A DNA stretch of 64,000 nt from Thermodesulfobacteriota bacterium (GCA_965198945.1 CBDAQI010000005.1:1-64000); one strand, 5' to 3'; positions 1,736 through 29,305 are shown, numbered from the stretch's first letter. The notes: generated from the sequence alone by a model not told the origin. Numbers and translations: made by a program.

Positions 1736-3985
1736 CCGGGTCTTTTTGTCGGGAAGATGGTTTTTTTCCTTTCAACCCGCTTGATTCCGCCATTCTCAAG
1801 ACGTTCAAAATCCGAAGCGTTTCTGCAGCCCGGATAACCGGAACACGCAAGAAACTCAGCGCCGTCACGACGCCGCTTCTTTATGACCATCGGTTTGCCG
1901 CACTTGTCGCAAACAATGCCCGTCTCTTCGGGCTTCTCAGCCTGCTTGACCACTATTTTATCGTCAACCCTCTCAAAATCTGAAGCGTTCTTACAACCCG
2001 GATAACCGGAACATGCAAGAAAACTCAGCGCCGTCACGACGCCGCTTCTTTATGACCATCGGTTTGCCGCACTTGTCGCAAACAATGCCCGTCTCTTCAG
2101 GCTTCTCAGCCTGCTTGACCACTATTTTATCGTCAACCCTCTCAAAATCCGAAGCGTTCTTGCATTCCGGATAGTTTGAACAGGAAAGAAATTCGCCTCC
2201 GCCGCGCCGTCTGTTTTTGATCACCATAGTCGCGCCGCATTCGCCGCATTCAATATCGGTTTTCTGAACCTCGTTTGAAGACTCATTTGCGCTTTCAATC
2301 CTCTTTTTCAAACCACTCTGCTCACCAAAGTAGAAATCACTGAGCAATCCGTCCCACCGTTCGCCCCCCTGTTCAATCCCGTCCAGCCTTTCTTCCACTT
2401 GCGCGGTAAATTTTTCATCCATAATGTCCGGGAAATCCTTCACAAGATAGTCGTTAACCGCAAAACCAAGCTGCGTGGGAAGTAAAGCTCTTTTGTCTTT
2501 GGCCACGTATTGCCTTTCCTGAATCGTGGAAAGTATTGAAGCATATGTTGAGGGGCGTCCGATGCCCTTTTTTTCAAGATCTTTGATGAGAGAGGCCTCG
2601 TTGTATCTGGCGGGCGGCTTTGTAAAATGCTGAGAGGGAACAATCTCTTTACATTGGAGCCCCTCACCCGCGACGAGTCCGGGCAGTATATCCTCTTCGT
2701 CCTCCTCTTTGCGGGCCGGAGGTGAAACCAGCCTCCATCCCGAAAATACTTCAACCGTTCCCGTGGAGCGGAAAACCGCATCACCCGCACTGATGTCCGC
2801 CGTTGTTTTTTCATCAACCCCGACGCTCATCTGGCTTGCGGCAAACTTTCTCCATATCAGTTCATAAAGACGCGCCTGATCTTTTTCCAGAAACTTCGCC
2901 ATGTCTTCGGGTGTTCTTGAAATTGAAGTGACCCTTATCGCCTCGTGAGCGTCTTGCGCGTCTTTGCTGACTTTACGCACATTGGGCTTTGCCGGAACAA
3001 ACTCAGCGCCATATTTTTGTTTGATAAATGCGCGGGCTTCATCAACGGCGCGCGGAGAGAGGCGCACGGAATCAGTTCTCATATAGGTTATAAGACCCAC
3101 GGGGCCTTCCTCTCCGAGATCAATTCCCTCGTAGAGACGCTGGGCCAGATTCATTGTTTTCTTTACCGTGAAGCCGAGCTTTGTTGACGCTTCACGCTGT
3201 AATGTGCTCGTTATAAAAGGAGACGGCGGCTTCAGATTTACTTTCTTTTTCTCAACCGATGAAACCGTAAAACGCTCATTTTCAAGCGTTTTTACAATCT
3301 CAAGCGCTTTTTCTTCATTTGGAATTTCATCCCCGGAGTCTTGAAAACTGCGAAGCGCGGCGCTGAATGACTCACCGTTTTCCATGAGAAGACGGGCTTC
3401 AATCTTCCAGTATTCAACCGGATTAAAAGCCTGAATTTCACGCTCTTTCCTGACGACAAAATTCAACGCAATGCTCTGAACCCTTCCCGCACTTAAGTTG
3501 CCGCCTATTTTCTTCCAGAGCAGAGGGCTCACTTTGTAGCCGACAATTCTGTCCAGAATGCGCCGCGCCTGCTGCGCCTCAAATCTCGCCTGATTGATTT
3601 CCCCGCTTTCTTTGAAGGTTTCAAGAACGCCCTCTTTTGTTATTTCCCGTATCAAAACCCTGCGGGCCCTGTCGCCGAGTTTCAACTGCCGAGAGATATG
3701 CCATGCAATTGCTTCACCTTCTCTGTCCGGGTCTGTGGCAAGATAGACCGTTTCTTTTCCTCTGGCGGACTTGCGCAGAGAATCAAGCACTTTCTGCTTG
3801 CCCTTTATGACCGCATAGTCGGGCTTGAAACCGTTATCAAGATCAACTCCGAGTCTGCCGTGCGTTTTGTCGGAAAGGTCAACAACATGGCCGACGGACG
3901 CCTCAACTTCATAACCTTCGCCGAGATAACTTTTGATGGTCTTCGCTTTTGCGGGTGATTCCACAATTACAAGAGATTTAGCCAT
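1723..3985 (-). CDS. topA: DNA topoisomerase I with three C-terminal C4 zinc ribbons; one frameshift near 2020
   Basis: KSLVIVESPAKAKTI, LATDPDREGEAIAWH, GLITYMRTDS, GIGRPSTYA. GGAGG RBS before the ATG at 3985. ORFs 1991-4003 and 1723-2037 join if one extra A is removed. Confidence 0.95.
1831..2167. repeat. Near-perfect 168-bp tandem duplication encoding a topA zinc-ribbon unit
   Basis: cggataaccggaaca(c/t)gcaagaaa(a)ctcagcgccgtcacgacg... starts at 1831 and at 1999; the second copy has one extra A. Confidence 0.9.
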
Positions 3986-4991: not shown

Positions 4992-6320
4992 CTAACCCGG
5001 CCCCCCGGAACCGTCCGGCTCTCCGATACAAAAATACCGGAACCCCATTTGCCTCATTTTCTCCGGGGAATAGATGTTTCTCCCGTCAACAACAACGGGA
5101 GATTTCATAAAGGACAGAAGTCTGCCGAAATCGGGCTGTCTGTATTCGTTCCACTCCGTGGCTATAAAAAGCGCGTCCGCGCCTTCACACGCATCGTAGG
5201 GAGTAAGAGCCCTTTTCACATCCGGCGGAATGGACTCTTTTGCGGCCCCGGCAAAAGCAACCGGGTCATGAGCTTTAACATCCGCCCCCTCGCCTATGAG
5301 TTCCCGCATTATGTGGATTGCCGGAGATTCCCTTATATCATCCGTATTGGGCTTGAAAGACACGCCCCAGAAAGCGATCCTGACACCTTTGAGCCCCTCC
5401 GGGAAAAGGCTTCTGATTTTTCCCAGAAAAACCTCGCGCTGAAGGGTGTTGACCTCATCAACCGCGGAGCAGATTTTCATGCCAAAGCCGTTTTCAGCCG
5501 CCGTTCCCATAACCGCTCTTACATCTTTGGGCAGGCATGAGCCGCCGTATCCGACTCCCGGATAGAGGAACTTGTCGCCTATCCTCTCATCGGCCGCCAT
5601 AACCGAGCGCACTTGTGAAACACTCGCCCCCATTTTTTCACAAAAACCGGCCATTTCGTTCATGAAAGATATGCGTGTTGCAAGCATCGCATTTGAGGCG
5701 TATTTTGCAATCTCGGACGAACGTATGGAAATTGATATAAGCCTCTCACCGCGCCTCATATAAGGCGAATAGAGAGACCGCAGAAGGCTTTCGGCTTTTT
5801 CGCTGTCTGTTCCTATGACAATTCTGTCCGGACTCAGAAAATCTTTCACGGCCGACCCTTCTTTCAGAAATTCGGGATTGGAAGCGACATCAAAGTTGCT
5901 TCCGCCGTTTTCCAGCACAATGTCTCCGACTTTTTCAGTTGTTCCGGGAGGAACGGTGCTTTTGGTCACTATCAGCTTGTAACTATCTCCGCACAACCCC
6001 CCGAACTGTTTTGCCACATCAAAAACAAAACTTAAATCGGGAGACCCGTTTTCGGTCTGGGGAGTTCCGACCGCTATAAAAACAATCTGCGACCCGGCGA
6101 TGGCTTCATCAGAGTTGTCAGTAAAAGCGAGCCGCCCGTCCCTGATGTTCTTGGCGACTATCTCGTCAAGGTTAGGCTCGTAAAAAGGAGTAACACCTTT
6201 TTCAAGTGATTCTATTTTTCTCCTGTCCACATCGGCGCAGACAACATAGTTTCCGCTGTCGGCAAGGCATGCTCCGGTGACCAGTCCCACATATCCCGTT
6301 CCTATTACTCCTATTTTCAA
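4992..6320 (-). CDS. ugd: UDP-glucose 6-dehydrogenase
   Basis: VIGTGYVGL, KSTVPPGT, SNPEFLKEG, GYGGSCLPKD, FKPNTDDIRESP. Confidence 0.93.
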   Translation of the reverse strand: MKIGVIGTGYVGLVTGACLADSGNYVVCADVDRRKIESLEKGVTPFYEPNLDEIVAKNIRDGRLAFTDNSDEAIAGSQIVFIAVGTPQTENGSPDLSFVFDVAKQFGGLCGDSYKLIVTKSTVPPGTTEKVGDIVLENGGSNFDVASNPEFLKEGSAVKDFLSPDRIVIGTDSEKAESLLRSLYSPYMRRGERLISISIRSSEIAKYASNAMLATRISFMNEMAGFCEKMGASVSQVRSVMAADERIGDKFLYPGVGYGGSCLPKDVRAVMGTAAENGFGMKICSAVDEVNTLQREVFLGKIRSLFPEGLKGVRIAFWGVSFKPNTDDIRESPAIHIMRELIGEGADVKAHDPVAFAGAAKESIPPDVKRALTPYDACEGADALFIATEWNEYRQPDFGRLLSFMKSPVVVDGRNIYSPEKMRQMGFRYFCIGEPDGSGGPG

Positions 6321-10060: not shown

Positions 10061-11254
10061 ATGAAAAGGAAACCCGCCGCACTGAAAAAACCCCTGTCAA
10101 TCTACGTCCACTTTCCCTACTGTGATTTCAAATGCCCTTTTTGCAACCTGAACGCATGGGAGCAAAAGGGATTTGATGAAAAAACATATATTGAGTCGTT
10201 GCGGAGGGAGTATGAAAACACCGTCGCCGGAATGCCCGGATTGATGTCAGATTATGTGATTGACACCGTTTTTATGGGAGGAGGAACGCCTTCTCTTTTC
10301 ACTGTACAGTCCGTGGAAAAAACGCTTGAGTTTCTGTCGGACAAATGCGCAATTTCAGAACACGCCGAAATATCCATTGAAACTCATCCCTTATCGTCCG
10401 AGACCAACAGGCTAAAAGGATACCGGGAGGCCGGTGTCAACCGTGTAAGCATAGGCGTTCAGTCTTTTTCTTCGGAAAAATTGAAAAGCCTCGGAAGAAG
10501 ATACGAGGCGGAGAGCTGCTTTGAGGCGGTGGAAAATGCCAAAGAATCGGGAGTCGGAAATATAAGCCTGGACATAATAGCCGGGGCTCCGGGAGAAACT
10601 CCCGGAACTTTTGGAGAAGACATTCAAAGAGCCGCAGACACCGGGGTAACCCATTTGTCCGTTTACAATCTTGAAGTTGAAAAAGGAACCCGTTTTTATG
10701 CGCTTGCAAAAAGAGGCGAGCTGCCGCTCCCTTCAACGGAACAGTCCACACAGATGATTGAGAGGGCCGTGAGAGAAATGGAAGCGCGCGGAATGGAAAG
10801 GTATGAAATCTCAAGTTTCGCGGAGCCGGGAGGCCGGTGCAGACACAACATAAACTATTGGCGTTCGGGAGACTACATCGGTCTCGGCGCGGGCGCCCAC
10901 TCACATCTGACCACCGAAGACGCGCCTTTCGGCCTGAGGTGGGCGAACCCCCGGAGTCCCGGAATTTATATGGGAAAAGCCGGGCGCGGAATTGTATCCA
11001 AAAGGAAAAAAAATGATGCGGAAACGGGTTTTACAGACTGTTTGATGATGGGGCTGCGCCTTGCCGAGGGCATTGACATGCGGCTTGCCGAGAAAAAATT
11101 CAGCGTCTCGGTGGACAAAAACACTATTGAAAAACTTGAAAACGGCGGTTTTTTAAGCGTCTCAAACGGAACCGTTAAAATGACGGCAAAAGGATTTCTT
11201 GTTGCAAACTCCATATTTGTGGAAATTACGGGCAAAGTGAAAATTGTTTCATAG
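10061..11254 (+). CDS. hemW: Radical SAM heme chaperone HemW (HemN-like)
   Basis: YVHFPYCDFKCPFC, GGGTPS, RVSIGVQSF, YEISSF...HNINYW, YIGLGAGAH. Confidence 0.88.
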   Translation: MKRKPAALKKPLSIYVHFPYCDFKCPFCNLNAWEQKGFDEKTYIESLRREYENTVAGMPGLMSDYVIDTVFMGGGTPSLFTVQSVEKTLEFLSDKCAISEHAEISIETHPLSSETNRLKGYREAGVNRVSIGVQSFSSEKLKSLGRRYEAESCFEAVENAKESGVGNISLDIIAGAPGETPGTFGEDIQRAADTGVTHLSVYNLEVEKGTRFYALAKRGELPLPSTEQSTQMIERAVREMEARGMERYEISSFAEPGGRCRHNINYWRSGDYIGLGAGAHSHLTTEDAPFGLRWANPRSPGIYMGKAGRGIVSKRKKNDAETGFTDCLMMGLRLAEGIDMRLAEKKFSVSVDKNTIEKLENGGFLSVSNGTVKMTAKGFLVANSIFVEITGKVKIVS

Positions 11255-11391
11255 GGTAATCTGACAAATATTCCAGCCTCCGGAAGAGCAAAAATGGCAA
11301 AAATCATCACCGTAAAAGCACAGAAAAACTCGGAGACTCATCAATAAAAAGCAGATACGGAGGCAAAGAAATTTTTAAAGCAGTTGGCAAC
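11160..11391 (+). repeat. Left copy of the hemW-3'/eno-5' junction duplication, containing a deleted eno pseudo-fragment (11294-11391)
   Basis: The ATG at 11294 reads MAKIITVKAQ (eno: [10 protein letters not shown]). 11329-11391 reads LGDSSIKSRYGGKEIFKAVGN versus eno 13840-13902 [21 protein letters not shown], 48/63 nt identical by hand count. Confidence 0.85.
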
Positions 11392-11563
11392 GGGACGCTC
11401 CGCCATCCGAAACTTCACCGCCTTAGCACCAATGCCGCAACCACAAGAAAAGATGCCTTCATTCTCTGGAATGACTGCTGATAAGGTGACCGCGTGAGAT
11501 AGTCTGAAATATTTTTGTGCGGCCACGGTTGAAAAAATAACCTGACAATGACTTCATAGGTTA

Positions 11564-12793
11564 TCACGCCAAATCCCCATAAAGTGGGACCGTCGGCGCA
11601 TGCGCATCAATCATTCTGGTAATATTTGCTGCTAATGGAAGGTTGTTTTTTTCCATCTCCCATACCTCCCGGAAACGCCGCACGGTTTCTGTTGCGGTGT
11701 CTATGACGAGTTTTTCCGGGAGAAGCGCTTTAGCGGCGAGATGGCGCAACTCGTCAGCACTGAACTGAGCCATTTTTCCGGTACGCGAATAGTTAAGCGC
11801 GGCCGTATTCTCGCCCTTGACATAAGAGATTGTGGAGACGAGATCGTAGACCGGTGAGAGAGCCGCCGTGCGTTTGTCGGGATAGATCAGCGACCAGTTT
11901 TTGAGGTGCATATCGCCATTGCCTATCAGGGCGCAAAAGACAAGTCTGCGAATATATTCGGCTGTGCTGGCATCGCCGGTTTCGGCGCCAATAACGCGGC
12001 CGATATTGGCGTAGCTCGCACGCTTATATTTGTTGTCTGGGAAGACGCCAAATACCTGCGCAAAATCCTCGGCGTGGACAGCTCCTTCCGCCGTGCGGTC
12101 AAAGCGGCTGACGGCGAGGGCCTGTCCCTCAAGTTCGCCAATGCCTTCCGGCATGCCGGCGATGGCATCAATGTCTATAAGTTTGATACCGGGCGCATCC
12201 ATGCCTATCAGCTTTGCGAGTGTCATCATTGAGAATTCATTCTCGGGCACACCCGAAAATTGTTGAGAGGGCAGCTTAATTATCCACGAGCCACCGACCC
12301 CTTCCGCCGGAATGGTGAGACCACCGCGTCTGTTACGGTTCTCTATCGCCGAGAATTTGAGCTGAACACCGGCAAGTGAGAAGCGGTATGCATTGGTCCG
12401 GACACTGTCCGGGGAAACTTCCGGCACGCCCGGAGGCATGGCTTCGCCTTCAATCGGGTGGATAGACACAGCACCGGGCAGATCCTGACCCAGCATCCAA
12501 AGCAGGAAGAACTCGCGTTGCGGGTTGACCCCGGCGCGGTCTGCCAGATAGAGGCGCAAGCGCCCTTCAGGCAGCAGGTTCGAAAAAAAGGGCGGCACCA
12601 CGCGCCGTGTGGGCTGGGAATTGGTGATCAGTCCGCCGAGACTGTCCTTGTAGGAGAGACTTAAAGTTGGGCGTGCGGTGTCGTTCACATACTGCTCGTT
12701 GAAAGCAAAAATAGTTAGATCTCCCTGCATACGGGTCAGGGTGGCGATCGAATGTCCGTGCAACTGAACATCAAGTACCGACACTTCAGGCAT
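11564..12793 (-). CDS. hipA: HipA-family toxin kinase
   Basis: PPFFSNLLPEG, SLAGVQLK, WIIKLP, RFDR, HAEDFAQ, GNGDMHLKNWS, LSPVYD. The ATG at 12793 overlaps the antitoxin stop. Confidence 0.93.
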   Translation of the reverse strand: MPEVSVLDVQLHGHSIATLTRMQGDLTIFAFNEQYVNDTARPTLSLSYKDSLGGLITNSQPTRRVVPPFFSNLLPEGRLRLYLADRAGVNPQREFFLLWMLGQDLPGAVSIHPIEGEAMPPGVPEVSPDSVRTNAYRFSLAGVQLKFSAIENRNRRGGLTIPAEGVGGSWIIKLPSQQFSGVPENEFSMMTLAKLIGMDAPGIKLIDIDAIAGMPEGIGELEGQALAVSRFDRTAEGAVHAEDFAQVFGVFPDNKYKRASYANIGRVIGAETGDASTAEYIRRLVFCALIGNGDMHLKNWSLIYPDKRTAALSPVYDLVSTISYVKGENTAALNYSRTGKMAQFSADELRHLAAKALLPEKLVIDTATETVRRFREVWEMEKNNLPLAANITRMIDAHAPTVPLYGDLA

Positions 12794-13379
12794 CGCCGCC
12801 CTCGTCATCCAACATGTAAGCGGGCCTGGAGTCGTCGGTAGAATCTCCATGCGCAGTTGAATTCAGGAGACTCTGCAGACTGTGCGCAATGTCACGGAAA
12901 ATGGGGACAGCCTGCGGCCTGCCCCGGTGGCACTCAAGCCGGGCGACCACCTTGCGCACCAGCCGCATTTGTTGATCGCTTAACTTCATACGGCGCAGGA
13001 AGGATAGAGACTCCTCAATGTGATCAAGCTCTGCGGAGCTTCCATAAAGCTGCTTCATCTTTTTGATCAGGCGTTCGGCACGTGCAAAACGCCTGCTACT
13101 GGACCGGTCGGCACGGATGCGCACCGCAGGCGTAGCTTGAGCCTTCACGAGGCCCAGCACAGCGGGCACAAGTTTCTTCGGCACAAGTATGAGCTCAAGG
13201 TCAAGAGCACGCGCCATGTCAATAAAGCTCGACAGGCCAGGCTCTATTTTGCCGCCCTCAATCTGCGAAATATGGCTCTGGGTCAGGCCGGCTCTATCAC
13301 TCAGTGCCCTCTGGCTGGTGCCAGATGCTTCACGCACCTCGCGAGCCTGTGTGATGAGATTCTCACTTTTATAATTCAT
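12786..13379 (-). CDS. HipB-like XRE antitoxin with a long C-terminal extension
   Basis: REASGTSQRALSDRAGLTQSHISQIEGGKIEP HTH; lies directly upstream of hipA and overlaps it. Confidence 0.85.
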   Translation of the reverse strand: MNYKSENLITQAREVREASGTSQRALSDRAGLTQSHISQIEGGKIEPGLSSFIDMARALDLELILVPKKLVPAVLGLVKAQATPAVRIRADRSSSRRFARAERLIKKMKQLYGSSAELDHIEESLSFLRRMKLSDQQMRLVRKVVARLECHRGRPQAVPIFRDIAHSLQSLLNSTAHGDSTDDSRPAYMLDDEGGDA

Positions 13380-13383
13380 GATG

Positions 13384-13424
13384 TATTATTCTATATCAAT
13401 TTAAGCAAATGATATAGAATAATA
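13384..13424. promoter_or_regulatory. Perfect 15-bp inverted repeat, probable hipBA operator
   Basis: tattattctatatca-N11-tgatatagaataata, 4 nt upstream of the antitoxin ATG. Confidence 0.75.
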
Positions 13425-13559
13425 TATACATTATCACGGATTAAGAATCATATAGATACAAAATAATAATCAAAACTACTTTAGGATACAGAATTATGAA
13501 TCACTACTCTGAACTTTTCGTTTTAGTCGTGACACGACAGGGAAGTTACAAATCACTTT

Positions 13560-13902
13560 CTGAAAGGAGCGGTGAAAATTATCCGAAGAGGTCTTTTTAT
13601 TGCCAAACTCTATAATCGTGAAAATTACAGAGGGGGCGAAAACCGTTTCATGATATAATCCAGAAAATCTTTTATGATCCGGAGACAAAATGGCAAAAGT
13701 TAAAACAGTAAAGGCGCGAGAAATTATTGACTCACGGGGAAATCCCACCGTTGAAGTTGATATTTTGTGCGAAGACGGCTCATTCGGAAGAGGGGCCGTG
13801 CCTTCCGGCGCATCAACGGGAAAATTTGAAGCGCGTGAACTCAGAGATTCATCAAGAAAAAAGAGATACGGAGGCAGGGGTGTTCTCAAAGCGGTTGGAA
13901 AT
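13560..13902 (+). repeat. Right copy of the hemW-3'/eno-5' junction duplication (degenerate hemW end, functional eno start)
   Basis: ttgccaaactctataatcgtgaaaattacag...gtttcatga resembles hemW ttgcaaactccatatttgtggaaattacgg...gtttcatag. ccggagacaaaatggcaaaa resembles ccggaagagcaaaaatggcaaaa. Confidence 0.8.
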
Positions 13903-15003
13903 GTCAACCGGATACTCAAAAGAGCCGTATCCGGAATTGACGCGCGCGACCAGCGGGAGATTGACCGGAAACTTATTGAAAAAGATTCAACAAAAGCAAA
14001 ATCACGGCTCGGAGCAAATGCGATTCTGGGCGTTTCGCTTGCGGCTTCACGGGCCGCGGCCGAATCACAGAAAGTACCTTTTTATCTGCATCTGTCCCGG
14101 CTGAACGGGAAAATACGCCCCGCTCTTCCGGTTCCTTTTATGAACATAATCAACGGCGGCGCTCACGCGGACAACAATCTGGATTTTCAGGAATTCATGC
14201 TTGTGCCGCACGGATTCAAAAGCTTCTCCGAGTCTCTGCGCGCGGGAGTTGAAATTTTTCAGAGTCTCAAATCTCTTCTGAAATCAAAGGGGCTTGCCAC
14301 ATCAGTCGGAGATGAAGGGGGTTTCGCCCCGGACTTGCGCTCAAATGAAAGCGCAATGGAATTCATAGTCTTGGCGGCGGAAAAAGCCATTTATAAAACG
14401 GGCGGGCAAGTGTCAGTGGCGATGGATGCGGCGGCAAGCGAATTATTCTCGGACGGTAAATACCGCATCGGAGGCAAAAAAATTTCGTCCGGGGCGCTCA
14501 TAAAAATGTATGAAAAATGGACGAAAAACTGGCCGCTTGTTTCAATTGAAGACCCTCTGGACGAAAACGACTGGGATGGGTGGAGTGAGCTTATGGACCG
14601 CATAGGACACTCCGTTCAGATTGTGGGGGACGACCTGTTTGTTACAAACAGACTGAGGCTTGAAAAGGGAATCAAACTCGGAGCGGCAAATTCAATACTC
14701 ATCAAAGTAAACCAGATAGGGACCCTTTCGGAAACCTTTGATGCAATGGAGTGCGCACGGCGCGCGGGTTATTCGTGCATGGTGTCTCACCGTTCGGGTG
14801 AAACCGAAGATCCGGCCATCGCAGACATAGCTGTGGCAACCGCATGCGGACAGATAAAAACGGGCGCACCGTGCAGAGGCGAAAGAACCGCAAAATACAA
14901 CCGCCTGCTGAGAATTGAAGAGGAGCTGGGCAAAAAAGCGGTGTTTGCGGGAAAGGTAATTCTGGATAAAATTCAAGTTGGACAAAGGGGTTCTGAAATC
15001 TGA
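13690..15003 (+). CDS. eno: Enolase
   Basis: [45 protein letters not shown]. Confidence 0.98.
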
Positions 15004-23189: not shown

Positions 23190-23771
23190 AAATTAAACGA
23201 TATAGAATCGCTTATTTTTGAACTGTGAGGGCATAAAGTCATTTTGGATAGGGATATGGCTACTATTTATGGGGTGGAAACAAAAAGAATTAATGAAGCC
23301 GTACAAAGAAATAGGGATAAATTTCCTCCGGGATATATTCTTGATTTAGCACAAAAAGAGTGGCAATTTTTGAGATCACAGAATGTAACTTCAAAAGACC
23401 ATCAGGGACGGCAATCTTTGAAGTCGCAAAATGCGACTTCAAAGGGAGGCAAGGTAAAGCCTCCCAAAGCCTTTACCGAAAAGGGCTTATACATGCTGGC
23501 AACTATCCTTAAATCAAAGCAGGCCACAAAGGCCACTTTACAAATTATTGAAATATTTGCAAAAATACGAGAGTTTAGCCGTGTGGCAAAATCACTGGCG
23601 ACAGAAAAAGATAAAGCCGAACAGAAAAACCTCATCAGAAAAAGCGGAGAACTGATAAGTGATATTCTCAATCAGGAATTTGCCGGCGATACCAGCAGCG
23701 AGACCACCATTGAATTAAACTTGGCGATGATTAAAATCAAGCACACCATTAAAAAAGAAAAGAAAAAATGA
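23190..23771 (+). pseudogene. ORF6N/KilA-N DNA-binding protein with a damaged 5' end
   Basis: In frame IESLIFEL*GHKVILDRDMATIYGVETKRINEAVQRN...AFTEKGLYMLATILKS. A TGA at 23226 replaces the usual Arg and upstream ATGs are out of frame. It could still restart at 23244 or 23256. Confidence 0.75.
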
Positions 23772-24850
23772 AAATACAACTAAAAGAAATCACTGTCCGA
23801 GAACTTGCTGAAGGTTATGAAGACAAACAGGAAAGCGGCGTAGTGGCTTACGGCGGCAAACTGGACATTCGCCCGCCTTATCAAAGAGAATTTATCTATA
23901 AAGATAAGCAACGAAATGCGGTGATTGATACGATCGCTAAGGATTTTCCTTTGAATGTAATGTATTGGGCGGTTAGAGAAGATGGGAATTTTGAAATTAT
24001 TGACGGGCAACAGCGTACCATTTCCATTTGCCAATATGTGAAAGGAGAATTTTCTTTTGAAGGTCTCTTTTTTCACAACTTGCAAAATGACGAGCAAGAA
24101 CAGATTTTGAATTACAAGCTGATGATTTACCAATGCAACGGCACCGACAGCGAAAAATTGGAATGGTTCAAAACCATCAACATAGCGGGCGAAAAACTAA
24201 CCGACCAGGAATTAAAAAATGCGGTTTATTCGGGTTTATGGGTAACCGATGCCAAGCGCTATTTCAGCAAAAACGGATGTGCGGCTTATGGAATGGGAAG
24301 CGATTATTTAACTGGCTCGCCCATTCGTCAGGACTATCTGGAAACCGCTATCAAATGGATTAGCAAAGACGAGATAGAAAATTATATGGGCACACACCAA
24401 CACGAGCCAAATGCCAATGAACTATGGCTTTATTTTCAGGCTGTCATCAATTGGGTGCAGGCGGTGTTTCCAAACTATCGTAAAGAAATGAAAGGTATTC
24501 AGTGGGGCTTTCTTTACAAGCAGTTTAAAGACCAAAAATTTGACTCTAAAAAATTGGAAGAAGAAATTGCCAAACTAATGGAAGACGAAGACGTAACTGC
24601 TAAAAAAGGCATTTATGAATATCTCTTAACCAGCAAAGAAAAACATCTGAATATCCGTGCCTTCAGTCCAAATCAGAAACGGGAAGCCTACGAAAGACAA
24701 AAGGGAATTTGTGCAAAGTGTGGAGAAAGATTTGAATTAAACGAAATGGAAGCCGACCATATTACCCCATGGCATGAGGGCGGAAAAACGGTTGCGGAAA
24801 ACTGCCAAATGCTTTGCAAAGACGATAACAGAACAAAATCGGGAAAATAA
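23768..24850 (+). CDS. DUF262 (GmrS/ParB-like) + C-terminal HNH endonuclease
   Basis: PPYQREFIY, IIDGQQR, F..IN..G..L, C-terminal CAKC...EADHITPW..GG.T..NCQMLC..DNR.K. Confidence 0.88.
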   Translation: MKIQLKEITVRELAEGYEDKQESGVVAYGGKLDIRPPYQREFIYKDKQRNAVIDTIAKDFPLNVMYWAVREDGNFEIIDGQQRTISICQYVKGEFSFEGLFFHNLQNDEQEQILNYKLMIYQCNGTDSEKLEWFKTINIAGEKLTDQELKNAVYSGLWVTDAKRYFSKNGCAAYGMGSDYLTGSPIRQDYLETAIKWISKDEIENYMGTHQHEPNANELWLYFQAVINWVQAVFPNYRKEMKGIQWGFLYKQFKDQKFDSKKLEEEIAKLMEDEDVTAKKGIYEYLLTSKEKHLNIRAFSPNQKREAYERQKGICAKCGERFELNEMEADHITPWHEGGKTVAENCQMLCKDDNRTKSGK

Positions 24851-27593: not shown

Positions 27594-29305
27594 GTGTCTG
27601 AACAGAAGAAATCCAAAGTAGAAACAATCAAAGAAAGCAGCAACTACCTGCGCGGAACCATCAGCGAAACACTTGCGGGCGATGACTCGCATTTTTCCAA
27701 TGAGGACTACCAGCTCCTCAAGTTTCACGGCATATACCAGCAGGACGATCGCGACCTGCGCCAGCGGCTTAAAAAAGAGGGAAAAGAACGCAAGTATATG
27801 TTCATGGTTCGCACCAAAAACCCCGGAGGGGGAGAACTTTCACCCCGGCAGTGGGAGGCGCTTTGCGAAGCGTCCGACCGGTATGCGGACGGAACACTGA
27901 GAATCACAACACGGCAGACCATACAGTTTCATGGAATCGGGAAAAAGAATCTGAAAAGCACGATGATGCACCTGAATGAAAATTTTGTTCCGACAAACGG
28001 CGCGTGCGGCGATGTGAACAGAAACACAATGTCAGGTCCCGTTTCGGATATAACCGGCACGGACGCATTTAATGCGCAGAAACTCGCGCGAGAAATATCA
28101 GAGAACCTCTCATTCAAAACAAGCGCCTACTACGATGTATGGATGGACGGGGAGATGCTGACAAAAGAAGAGGGGGGGGGGAACGAAGATGTTGAACCTC
28201 TTTACGGCAAATCTTATCTGCCGCGTAAGTTCAAAATCGGCATAGCCGAAGAGCATGACAATTCAGTTGATGTTCACACAAATGACATAGGCATAGTTCC
28301 CGTAATAAACGGAGAACTCAAAGGTTTTAACGTCCTTGTGGGAGGCGGTCTCGGCAGCCATCACAAACAGAAGCAGACTTTTCCCCGTCTCGCCGACCCG
28401 CTCGGCTTTGTCAGTGAAGACAGAATCCATACAACGCTCAAAGCCATACTTGAATTTCAGAGAGACAACGGAGACAGAGTCAACCGCAAGCATGCGAGGA
28501 TGAAATACGTGGTTGAGGAATGGGGAATTGACAAAGTGCGCGCTGAGATTGAAAAGAGGGTCGGATTCAATCTCGCGCCGGTTACTGATTTCTCTCTCCG
28601 CCAGCCGGAAAATCACCTTGGGTGGCACATGCAGAACAGCCCCGGACTTATGTATGTCGGAATATTTGTGGAAAATGGCAGGATTAAAGACACGGAGTTG
28701 AGCAAGGAGAAAACCTGCATAAGGGAGATTGTAAAAGAGTTCGGTCTGGGAGTCCGGCTGACCGCGCTTCAGAACATAATTCTCTCAAACATCCGAGAAG
28801 AAAATGTTGCGGAAATCAAAGAACGTCTGAAAAAAAGCGGTGGTAAGGACAGAGGATGAACACTCAAAACTGCGTCTCAACTCAATGGCATGTCCGGCTC
28901 TGCCGACTTGCGGACTTGCGCTCGCCGAAGCCGAGAGGTATATGCCGTCTCTGATTTCGGAACTGGAACGGATGGGATACGGCCGACGAGAGAATCAAAA
29001 TCAGAATGAGCGGGTGCCCGAATTCATGCTCGCGCCCGCCGGTTGCGGAGATAGGGATTATCGGAGCATCTCCCGGTAAATACAATATCTATCTGGGCGG
29101 GAACTTTGAGGGGACACGGCTGAACACGCTCTATGAGGAAATGGTTCCCGATGAAGAACTTGCAGACAGAATAGCGGGCTTCATAGATTTCTACAGAAAA
29201 AGCGGTGAGAGCGGCGAGGCGTTCGGGGACTTCTGCGACAGAGTGGGTTTTGAGAAAATACGAAAAGCAACGCGCCCGGAGGGAGTCGAACCCCCAACCT
29301 CCTGA
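27594..29305 (+). CDS. Sirohaem sulfite (or nitrite) reductase hemoprotein, CysI/Sir-like; two single-base frameshifts (~28841, ~28984)
   Basis: [61 protein letters not shown] across three consecutive ORFs. Confidence 0.88.

Follow-up and report, generated by a model that had tools for sequence, protein, structure and literature searches.

A 64,000-nucleotide stretch of DNA from a Thermodesulfobacteriota bacterium (GCA_965198945.1, CBDAQI010000005.1:1-64000; hereafter the window) carries a hipB-hipA gene pair between hemW, the gene for a radical SAM haem chaperone, and eno, the gene for enolase, and the pair is bordered on both sides by copies of the hemW-eno junction. The locus raises the question of how a toxin-antitoxin cassette could have come to lie between two closely spaced housekeeping genes, and whether the repeat around it arrived with the cassette or was created when it entered. 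Here we find that the hemW-eno junction is duplicated around the cassette, that the same site is empty in five other species of the genus, and that the cassette itself is, by its sequence relationships, foreign. This structure probably goes back to an old event of the kind termed insertion with long target duplication (ILTD), by which a plasmid-type hipBA module of horizontal origin entered the junction.

The hemW-eno junction is duplicated around hipB-hipA

An earlier reading of the DNA, made from the sequence alone (the sequence-only reading), had placed hipBA inside a duplication of at least ~340 bp, with an intact hemW end and a dead eno start to the left and the reverse arrangement to the right. 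This structure is confirmed. The duplicated unit consists of the last ~90 nt of hemW, a 40-nt spacer and the first ~213 nt of eno, ~340-345 nt in all; its live hemW part is the last 91 nt of the gene (11164-11254), and the spacer between hemW and dead eno in the left copy is likewise 40 nt long. A direct repeat search pairs 11327-11390 with 13838-13901 at 78% identity and 11286-11319 with 13682-13715 at 76%, while a gapped local alignment pairs 11160-11327 with 13559-13724. Both alignment blocks score 58, a value reached by none of 500 shuffles (maxima 27 and 30), and the best score among 222 control segments from both strands of the window is 32. The pairwise alignment of the two junctions that the sequence-only reading had proposed as a check gives copies that align as it claimed, and direct reading of the two junctions bears out which gene end is whole in each. 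A blastn search of the whole genome with 11255-13689 recovers only the partner copy, so that the repeat is found only as this pair.

An independent nhmmer test used a DNA profile built from the five other genomes of the same genus in the collection (the congeners) alone, with the window sequence left out. The profile matches the right junction and beyond at 13562-14096 (profile positions 569-1107, E = 4e-117; envelope from 13542) and the left junction in two pieces, at 10900-11320 (305-727, E = 8e-79) and 11327-11394 (849-916, E = 1.9e-10). The duplicated unit thus corresponds to profile positions 569-916, and the left copy is without positions 728-848. The 117 nt missing from the left copy fall exactly between the 9-mers that begin at 13714 and 13831. 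The sequence-only reading had proposed that the dead eno was joined through this microhomology; both 9-mers are present, and the left copy does join there, with two extra A. Because the congeners carry the same repeat pair (9/9 in L002, for example), a slip between the 9-mers is plausible.

The congeners also provide the empty site. In all five, hemW and eno are adjacent, 48-68 nt apart, and the junction is present as a single copy that aligns with both copies in the window. A DNA query that included hipBA gave no match to hipBA in the five genomes, whose HemW and Eno proteins are 53-62% and 77-80% identical, respectively, to those of the window. The sequence GATATAAT stands right after the hemW stop in all five congeners; in the window it is intact only in the right copy (13652-13659), before the live eno, and in the left copy it is degraded to GGGTAATC. 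Its conservation suggests that it is a putative -10 box for eno; a promoter scan did not call it as a promoter, finding no match to a -35 element. The sequence before eno reads TGATATAAT, an extended -10-like motif, and the five congeners have GGATATAAT here. At the same place (13651-13659), the dead hemW stub ends in TGA, where the live copy and the congeners have TAG-G.

The two junction copies are 67-78% identical and so differ by 22-33%. The hemW relic matches the live hemW end at 62 of 90 nt and the eno relic matches the resident eno at 76 of 101 aligned nt; the synonymous pairs gac/gat, gca/gcg, ggc/gga and aac/aat to which the sequence-only reading had pointed are all there. In the dead eno fragment the 117-nt deletion is accompanied by a frameshift caused by the two extra A, and a stop follows after 17 codons; its translation, MAKIITVKAQK followed in another frame by EKLGDSSIKSRYGGKEIFKAVGN, corresponds to Eno residues 1-11 and 49-71 by tblastn. 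The dead hemW end, with a frameshift and stops upstream, reads FLLPNSIIVKITEGAKTVS up to its stop and the live end reads KMTAKGFLVANSIFVEITGKVKIVS, with 13 of 26 residues identical and the stop at the same position. The two stubs had been described as products of reciprocal decay, a description that we do not uphold: the hemW piece on the inner side lacks the rest of its gene upstream, just as the inner eno piece lacks its own downstream, so both were dead when formed, there was no reciprocal loss, and the pattern calls for no selective explanation. The dead eno start (11295-11348, + strand) also retains a 17-codon open reading frame (ORF), MAKIITVKAQKNSETHQ. Purine-rich sequence immediately after hemW precedes this ORF, which may still be translated as a by-product.

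Weaker similarity had been suspected to run on to ~11540, and this part of the earlier claim is marginal. For extension of the left copy toward ~11540-11560, 43 of 1000 shuffles reach the observed score, and the best matches of three of six genomes (L002, L004 and the window genome's own resident eno, G000) are collinear at eno nt 216-358, whereas those of L003, L005 and L006 are not. Extension of the right copy gave no signal (463 and 916 of 1000 shuffles reach the observed score), and no hemW similarity was found to the left of ~13542. The coordinates of all features are collected in Table 1.

Table 1. Features of the hemW-hipBA-eno locus (positions in the window)
Feature	Position	Strand	Description
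hemW (radical SAM haem chaperone), intact	10061-11254	+	TIGR00539 HemW 271.9 bits against a cut-off of 205.4; Pfam Radical_SAM and HemN_C
Left junction copy	11164-11394	+	Live hemW end, decayed spacer and dead eno start; 231 nt
Dead eno 5' fragment	11295-11394	+	Codons 1-11 (11295-11326) fused to ~codons 47-71 (11327-11394)
Spacer from eno relic to hipA stop	11395-11563		169 nt, uncertain origin
hipA, predicted toxin kinase	11564-12793	-	409 aa from the ATG that overlaps the hipB stop; Pfam HipA_C (PF07804) E 5.9e-45, Couple_hipA (PF13657) E 1.8e-21
hipB, predicted antitoxin/repressor	12786-13379	-	Long form, 197 aa; Pfam HTH_3 E 2.9e-11
hipB upstream region	13380-13561		GC 0.268; operator-like palindrome 13381-13427 and promoter-like sites on the - strand
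Right junction copy	13562-13902	+	Dead hemW 3' end, spacer with GATATAAT box and live eno start; 341 nt
Dead hemW 3' end	~13562-13653	+	Stop TGA at 13651-13653
Live eno start in right copy	13690-13902	+	First ~213 nt of eno
eno (enolase), intact	13690-15003	+	Pfam Enolase_N and Enolase_C, E 1.5e-120
9-nt direct repeat pair	13714-13722 and 13831-13839	+	8/9 identical, 117 nt apart

Identity and source of the cassette

By its domains, operon order and operator palindrome, hipBA is a HipBA type II toxin-antitoxin module, with toxicity and its neutralisation predicted. The HipA protein scores 59.3 bits with TIGR03071 against a cut-off of 27.8, and its two Pfam matches (Table 1) are both above cut-off. 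Its motifs GNGDMHLKNW and PVYD, which we take to be the catalytic loop and, in the kinase core, the Asp that binds Mg, line up with their counterparts in HipT 7ab4, a solved structure of the HipT/HipA type. HipB falls below the cut-off for TIGR03070 (34.9 against 71.65); it has a helix-turn-helix (HTH) domain at residues 13-63, followed by a C-terminal extension of ~110 residues (~87-197) without a Pfam match. The hipB stop overlaps the hipA start codon (ATGCCTGA). Although the longest hipA ORF begins at 12850 and would overlap hipB by 65 nt, relatives align from residue 15-22 onward and the ATG at 12793 overlaps the hipB stop, so that hipA probably starts at 12793. Upstream of hipB, the inverted repeat at 13381-13427 (I1) has 21-nt arms that are 90% complementary.

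The module resembles hipBA of E. coli (HipA/HipB) and HipBST of Legionella and E. coli O127 in having an N-terminal coupling domain and a HipA_C kinase core, and in carrying an HTH antitoxin gene upstream whose stop overlaps the toxin start, with an operator palindrome at the promoter. It differs from them in the length of its HipB, 197 residues with the C-terminal extension, and its similarity to solved HipA and HipT proteins is remote (E = 1e-18 to 1e-10).

A scan of species-representative genomes with HipA confirmed 564 relatives among 577 stretches, of which the best 80 were used. Among these best 80 of 564, the closest HipA proteins, 74-76% identical, come from Mesorhizobium, Pelagibacterium, Aquamicrobium, Fulvimarina, Jiella and similar genera. 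The closest HipA proteins on plasmids are from Devosia (79.5% and 78.5%), followed by Mesorhizobium and Jiella replicons, with a range of 74-80%. By comparison, five hipA genes from the host's own order encode proteins that are 52-62% identical, and their HipB aligns only over residues 1-86. The long HipB is common to 14 Hyphomicrobiales-type loci, where it is 59-72% identical and aligns over 177-197 of the 197 residues; at the DNA level, hipB and hipA together are 70-72% identical in these loci over 1715-1823 nt, and similarity breaks off at the hipA stop on one side and ~20 nt ahead of the hipB start codon on the other. The same 14 loci share the operator layout of the window, with the palindrome ending a few nt before the hipB ATG. 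On these sequence comparisons, the cassette is foreign, from a Hyphomicrobiales-like donor (Alphaproteobacteria), and belongs to a long-HipB subfamily that is centred on Hyphomicrobiales plasmids. No HipA relative was found on viral contigs, where 4 pattern matches were obtained and none was a relative.

Base composition is consistent with this origin. The hipA and hipB genes have a GC content of 0.55-0.56 and a third-position GC content (GC3) of 0.61, compared with 0.479 GC for the genome and a GC3 of 0.49-0.52 for hemW and eno. Because a GC3 of 0.61 lies between the host value of ~0.50 and the 0.67-0.79 of alphaproteobacterial hipA genes, the cassette looks partly ameliorated, which fits a long residence.

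The flanks of the relatives were also compared. Neither hemW nor eno pieces lie beside hipBA in the five same-order loci, and the alphaproteobacterial loci match only hipB-hipA. The 169 nt between the eno relic and the hipA stop (11395-11563) show no homology to the DNA downstream of hipA in the closest cassettes, the Hyphomicrobiales match ending at the hipA stop; they are possibly further eno sequence (nt ~216-358) in a state of strong decay, or something else.

Elsewhere in the window, amid housekeeping genes, 23244-24850 (+ strand) encodes an ORF6N-domain protein and then a GmrSD_N and HNH protein, a type IV restriction-like defence gene; this pair is possibly another small accessory insertion.

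How the cassette may have entered

The structure of the locus, the empty site in the congeners, the foreign cassette, the lack of mobility genes and the neutral pattern of change in the relics are the observed parts of the ILTD interpretation. We infer that duplication and insertion were one event, and likewise its molecular mechanism. In outline, a hipB-hipA cassette of plasmid type, bringing its own operator and promoter, would have been acquired horizontally from a Hyphomicrobiales-like lineage and would have entered the tight hemW-eno junction of a small genome (1.39 Mb, 48% GC). The insertion would have duplicated ~340 bp of target, possibly up to ~490 bp, a stretch that begins 91 nt ahead of the hemW stop and reaches codon 71 of eno; equivalently, the two ends of the foreign DNA would have been joined at positions offset from each other, either on one target or on sister chromosomes. 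The product would be a full hemW, the spacer and a 5' stub of eno on one side of hipBA, and a 3' stub of hemW, the spacer and a full eno on the other. In such a product hemW would keep its C-terminus and eno its native upstream region and start, leaving both neighbours unharmed; that the outer copies are whole is probably why an insertion into a junction of ~40 bp survived. The inner stubs would have been non-functional from the start and would since have drifted neutrally, accumulating ~0.15-0.2 substitutions per site, small indels and the 117-nt deletion between the 9-nt repeats.

ILTD, a rare mode of insertion, is reportedly known from work on restriction-modification gene complexes by Nobusato et al. 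in 2000. Passages of a later study (Furuta, Abe & Kobayashi 2010, PMC2853133) describe restriction-modification gene complexes inserted without mobility genes between direct repeats of 46 to ~420 bp that align with a single copy in a related genome, with an insert below 20 kb, a duplication above 30 bp and no other mobile element as the criteria, and propose a cycle of insertion, amplification and release. Here, too, the repeat is single-copy in insert-free relatives (5/5) and is not dispersed in the genome, which excludes that the cassette landed between existing repeats by chance, the duplication is longer than 30 bp, and the insert is shorter than 20 kb and lacks mobility genes. The likeness to the cases in those passages thus extends to a small, selfish 'addiction' pair, long direct repeats, the lack of a mobility gene and an insert GC content that differs from the host. 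The cargo, however, is a type II toxin-antitoxin pair with a kinase toxin and not a DNA-cutting system, so that the structure is ILTD-like but outside the gene class for which ILTD was defined. Most of the published pairs in those passages are far more alike, at 93-100% identity, and were seen between strains of one species, whereas the copies here share 67-78% identity and their insert-free counterparts belong to other species, which indicates an old event. We found no description of a toxin-antitoxin pair inserted with long target duplication in the literature searched.

Was the repeat made on the spot? The sequence-only reading had left it open whether a long homologous arm came in with the cassette or arose from its entry. 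We polarised the differences by codon position with five outgroups. Changes on the eno relic branch are spread 4:5:5 over positions 1, 2 and 3, compared with 1:1:7 for live eno (2 ambiguous), and those on the branch of the hemW relic 5:4:7, compared with 3:2:2 for the live hemW end (5 ambiguous). Local duplication followed by neutral decay would leave just such an even spread in the relic and a third-position pattern in the live gene, whereas in a fragment with a long functional history in another lineage the changes on its branch should be concentrated at third positions. The sequence most like the hemW relic is the resident hemW end (62/90 nt identical; the congeners match at 43-56 of 85-90). 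TCATCA (Ser-Ser) in eno and GTTTCAT ahead of the hemW stop are found in both relic and resident and in none of the five congeners. In a likelihood-ratio test, which has low power at these counts, local duplication is not rejected (p = 0.16 and 0.27). The codon-position pattern therefore leans toward an arm that was created, and local duplication at insertion probably accounts for the repeat.

Several observations weigh against this interpretation. At third positions of eno, relic and resident differ at 14/34 sites (5/33 and 6/34 at first and second positions), compared with a mean of 13.3/34 between species, which fits an imported allele too; the two copies stand almost as far apart as congeneric species do. 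Overall identity does not single out the resident eno as the nearest match of the eno relic, which shares 76/101 nt with it and 70-77 of 98-101 nt with the congeners. In a composite maximum-likelihood tree, built from the two stubs together, relic and live sequence pair as sisters, the arrangement that, combined with neutral decay, the sequence-only reading had held to favour local duplication over a foreign allele, but the support is weak (ultrafast bootstrap, UFBoot, 44; approximate likelihood-ratio test 55-65). The relic branch in this tree, 0.30-0.36, is about twice as long as the live branch of 0.153, and the stem is 0.03. Separate trees of the two fragments do not settle the matter: in the 101-column eno tree the relic lies outside a group of L006 and the resident, and the 91-column hemW tree does not resolve. 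In addition, a metagenome scan with HemW for closer relatives of the host gave only 2 loci, at 27-28% identity, and with no near kin found the event is not datable against close relatives. Finally, ILTD has been described for restriction-modification systems and is linked by its authors to the DNA breakage of these systems, and HipA is a protein kinase without such activity.

Some of these points would be explained by an imported arm. In Campbell-type integration, a circular DNA with one homologous arm enters by a single crossover, as in insertion-duplication by non-replicating plasmids, and the arm is duplicated as direct repeats with the truncated gene ends facing inward. A circle made of hipBA and one hemW-eno junction copy from related bacteria, perhaps released from an earlier insertion by recombination between its repeats, could have integrated in this way, in which case the stubs would be the foreign allele and the live parts the resident one. 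The geometry of the locus is exactly what a single crossover gives, the copies diverge at third positions as species do, the eno relic is as near to L003 (77/101) as to its own eno, and at ATC, ACC and AAA-GCx the relic of the eno start agrees with congeners and not with the resident; the trees leave room for such an origin, as they do not fix the position of the relic. Campbell-type entry, however, needs host-like sequence on the incoming DNA, and the flanks of the cassette's relatives are without hemW or eno. As to the lineage from which the inward stubs derive, the composite tree makes the relic sister to the resident (at the support noted), the fragment trees do not resolve, and the changes on the relic branches are neutral in pattern. 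The changes on the relic branches lack a third-position excess, the derived states shared by relic and resident are absent from the congeners, and the hemW relic is nearest to its own hemW, at most 56/90 being reached by any congener. An extra, earlier event would be needed to link hipBA with a junction fragment, and no donor among related bacteria is known. An imported arm is thus the weaker part of the earlier either-or, and we give it a modest chance of being correct.

Alternatively, insertion and duplication could predate the genus, with a single later loss in the common ancestor of the five congeners through recombination of one repeat with the other. One loss would suffice, as the five congeners form a weakly supported group (bootstrap 46) that excludes this genome in a tree of Eno proteins with outgroups; the split is deep, with a stem of 0.03 against terminal branches of 0.15-0.36, and direct repeats permit precise deletion. 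This history requires two events instead of one, however. The eno relic branch, at ~0.15 changes per site (14/101), is short compared with the ~0.40 third-position divergence between species, corresponding to about half the lineage depth, and the cassette is not fully ameliorated, with its GC3 of 0.61 against ~0.50. We consider so old an origin improbable. Under the ILTD interpretation, the insertion can lie anywhere on the long private branch of this genome.

Integration by an enzyme acting in trans, whether site-specific with duplication of an att site or transposition with a target-site duplication, is very improbable. The insert is ~2.0-2.2 kb long and contains no genes besides hipB and hipA. 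Pfam searches of 23 of the 24 non-overlapping ORFs of at least 110 aa at 1-27 kb, all but one antisense to hipB, gave no integrase or transposase; no tRNA gene lies within 15 kb of the insert, the only one in 1-30 kb being at 29271; and an inverted-repeat search of the window found none that pair the insert ends. The ~340-bp repeat is far longer than the target duplications of transposons, and at 341 nt it spans two coding ends with no defined att core. Att-like contexts for hipBA do occur: in L068, one of the loci screened below, hipBA lies between tRNA-Gln and a 47-nt copy of its 3' end (2993-3066 and 5387-5432, 2364 nt apart), leaving too little space for an integrase. Genomic islets with att duplications at the 3' ends of tRNA genes share with the window the direct repeats around a small accessory cassette, but in the window the insertion has neither tRNA nor integrase beside it, and the repeat is a two-gene junction and far longer.

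An assembly artefact or chimeric contig is hardly credible, even though this metagenome-assembled genome is a draft of 14 contigs and the cassette differs in GC content from its surroundings: junction copies that differ by 22-33% are no collapsed or mis-joined repeat, a cassette whose closest known relatives are only 70-72% identical in DNA does not stem from contamination with an alphaproteobacterium of known sequence, and separately assembled Logan contigs of two runs from a single study, which may include the source data of this genome, bridge hemW into hipA and hipA into eno with no alternative joint, one contig of 28 kb spanning 10500-14500 with 1 difference.

Other hipBA loci and what the insertion may mean

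We screened 82 hipBA loci (81 fetched loci and the window) for flanking direct repeats at E <= 1e-3, as a description and not as an estimate of a rate. Locus L082 comes from a genome with the title Thermodesulfobacteriota bacterium; its hipBA is surrounded by TraN/TraU conjugation genes, and a 94-nt in-frame internal fragment of traU is repeated at 3164-3257 and 5478-5571 with 84% identity and starts 2314 nt apart; the repeat scores 113 against a shuffle maximum of 27. The tRNA-Gln locus L068 was described above. A repeat of 190-196 nt and 84% identity in L047 (Rhizobium; 2955-3148 and 5443-5633) was rejected as a target duplication because 5 matches in the genome mark it as a dispersed intergenic element. 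L049 and L097 gave short, weak repeat matches, and a match in L088 was discarded as an indexing artefact.

A broader view, which we regard as rather unlikely, is that ILTD is a general, host-driven way for small addiction modules to enter tight essential junctions, with the arms then making the module a self-targeting mini-element. If so, recombination between the arms would release a circle of hipBA and one junction copy that could re-enter related genomes at hemW-eno by homology; such a cycle would account for the deep divergence of the two copies, and the hipBA units of 2.3-2.5 kb with direct repeats at traU in L082 and at tRNA-Gln in L068 would be further instances.

For the host, the outcome is that a foreign toxin-antitoxin pair has settled between housekeeping genes ~40 bp apart with neither of them damaged. 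The cassette represents a cross-phylum transfer of a plasmid-type hipBA from a Hyphomicrobiales-like source into the small genome of an unrelated, uncultured lineage, and its decayed stubs could act as an internal neutral clock if closer relatives become available. If the ILTD interpretation is right, it would extend this mode of insertion from restriction-modification systems to a kinase-type toxin-antitoxin module and would bear on whether DNA breakage by the cargo or recombination by the host drives such insertions.

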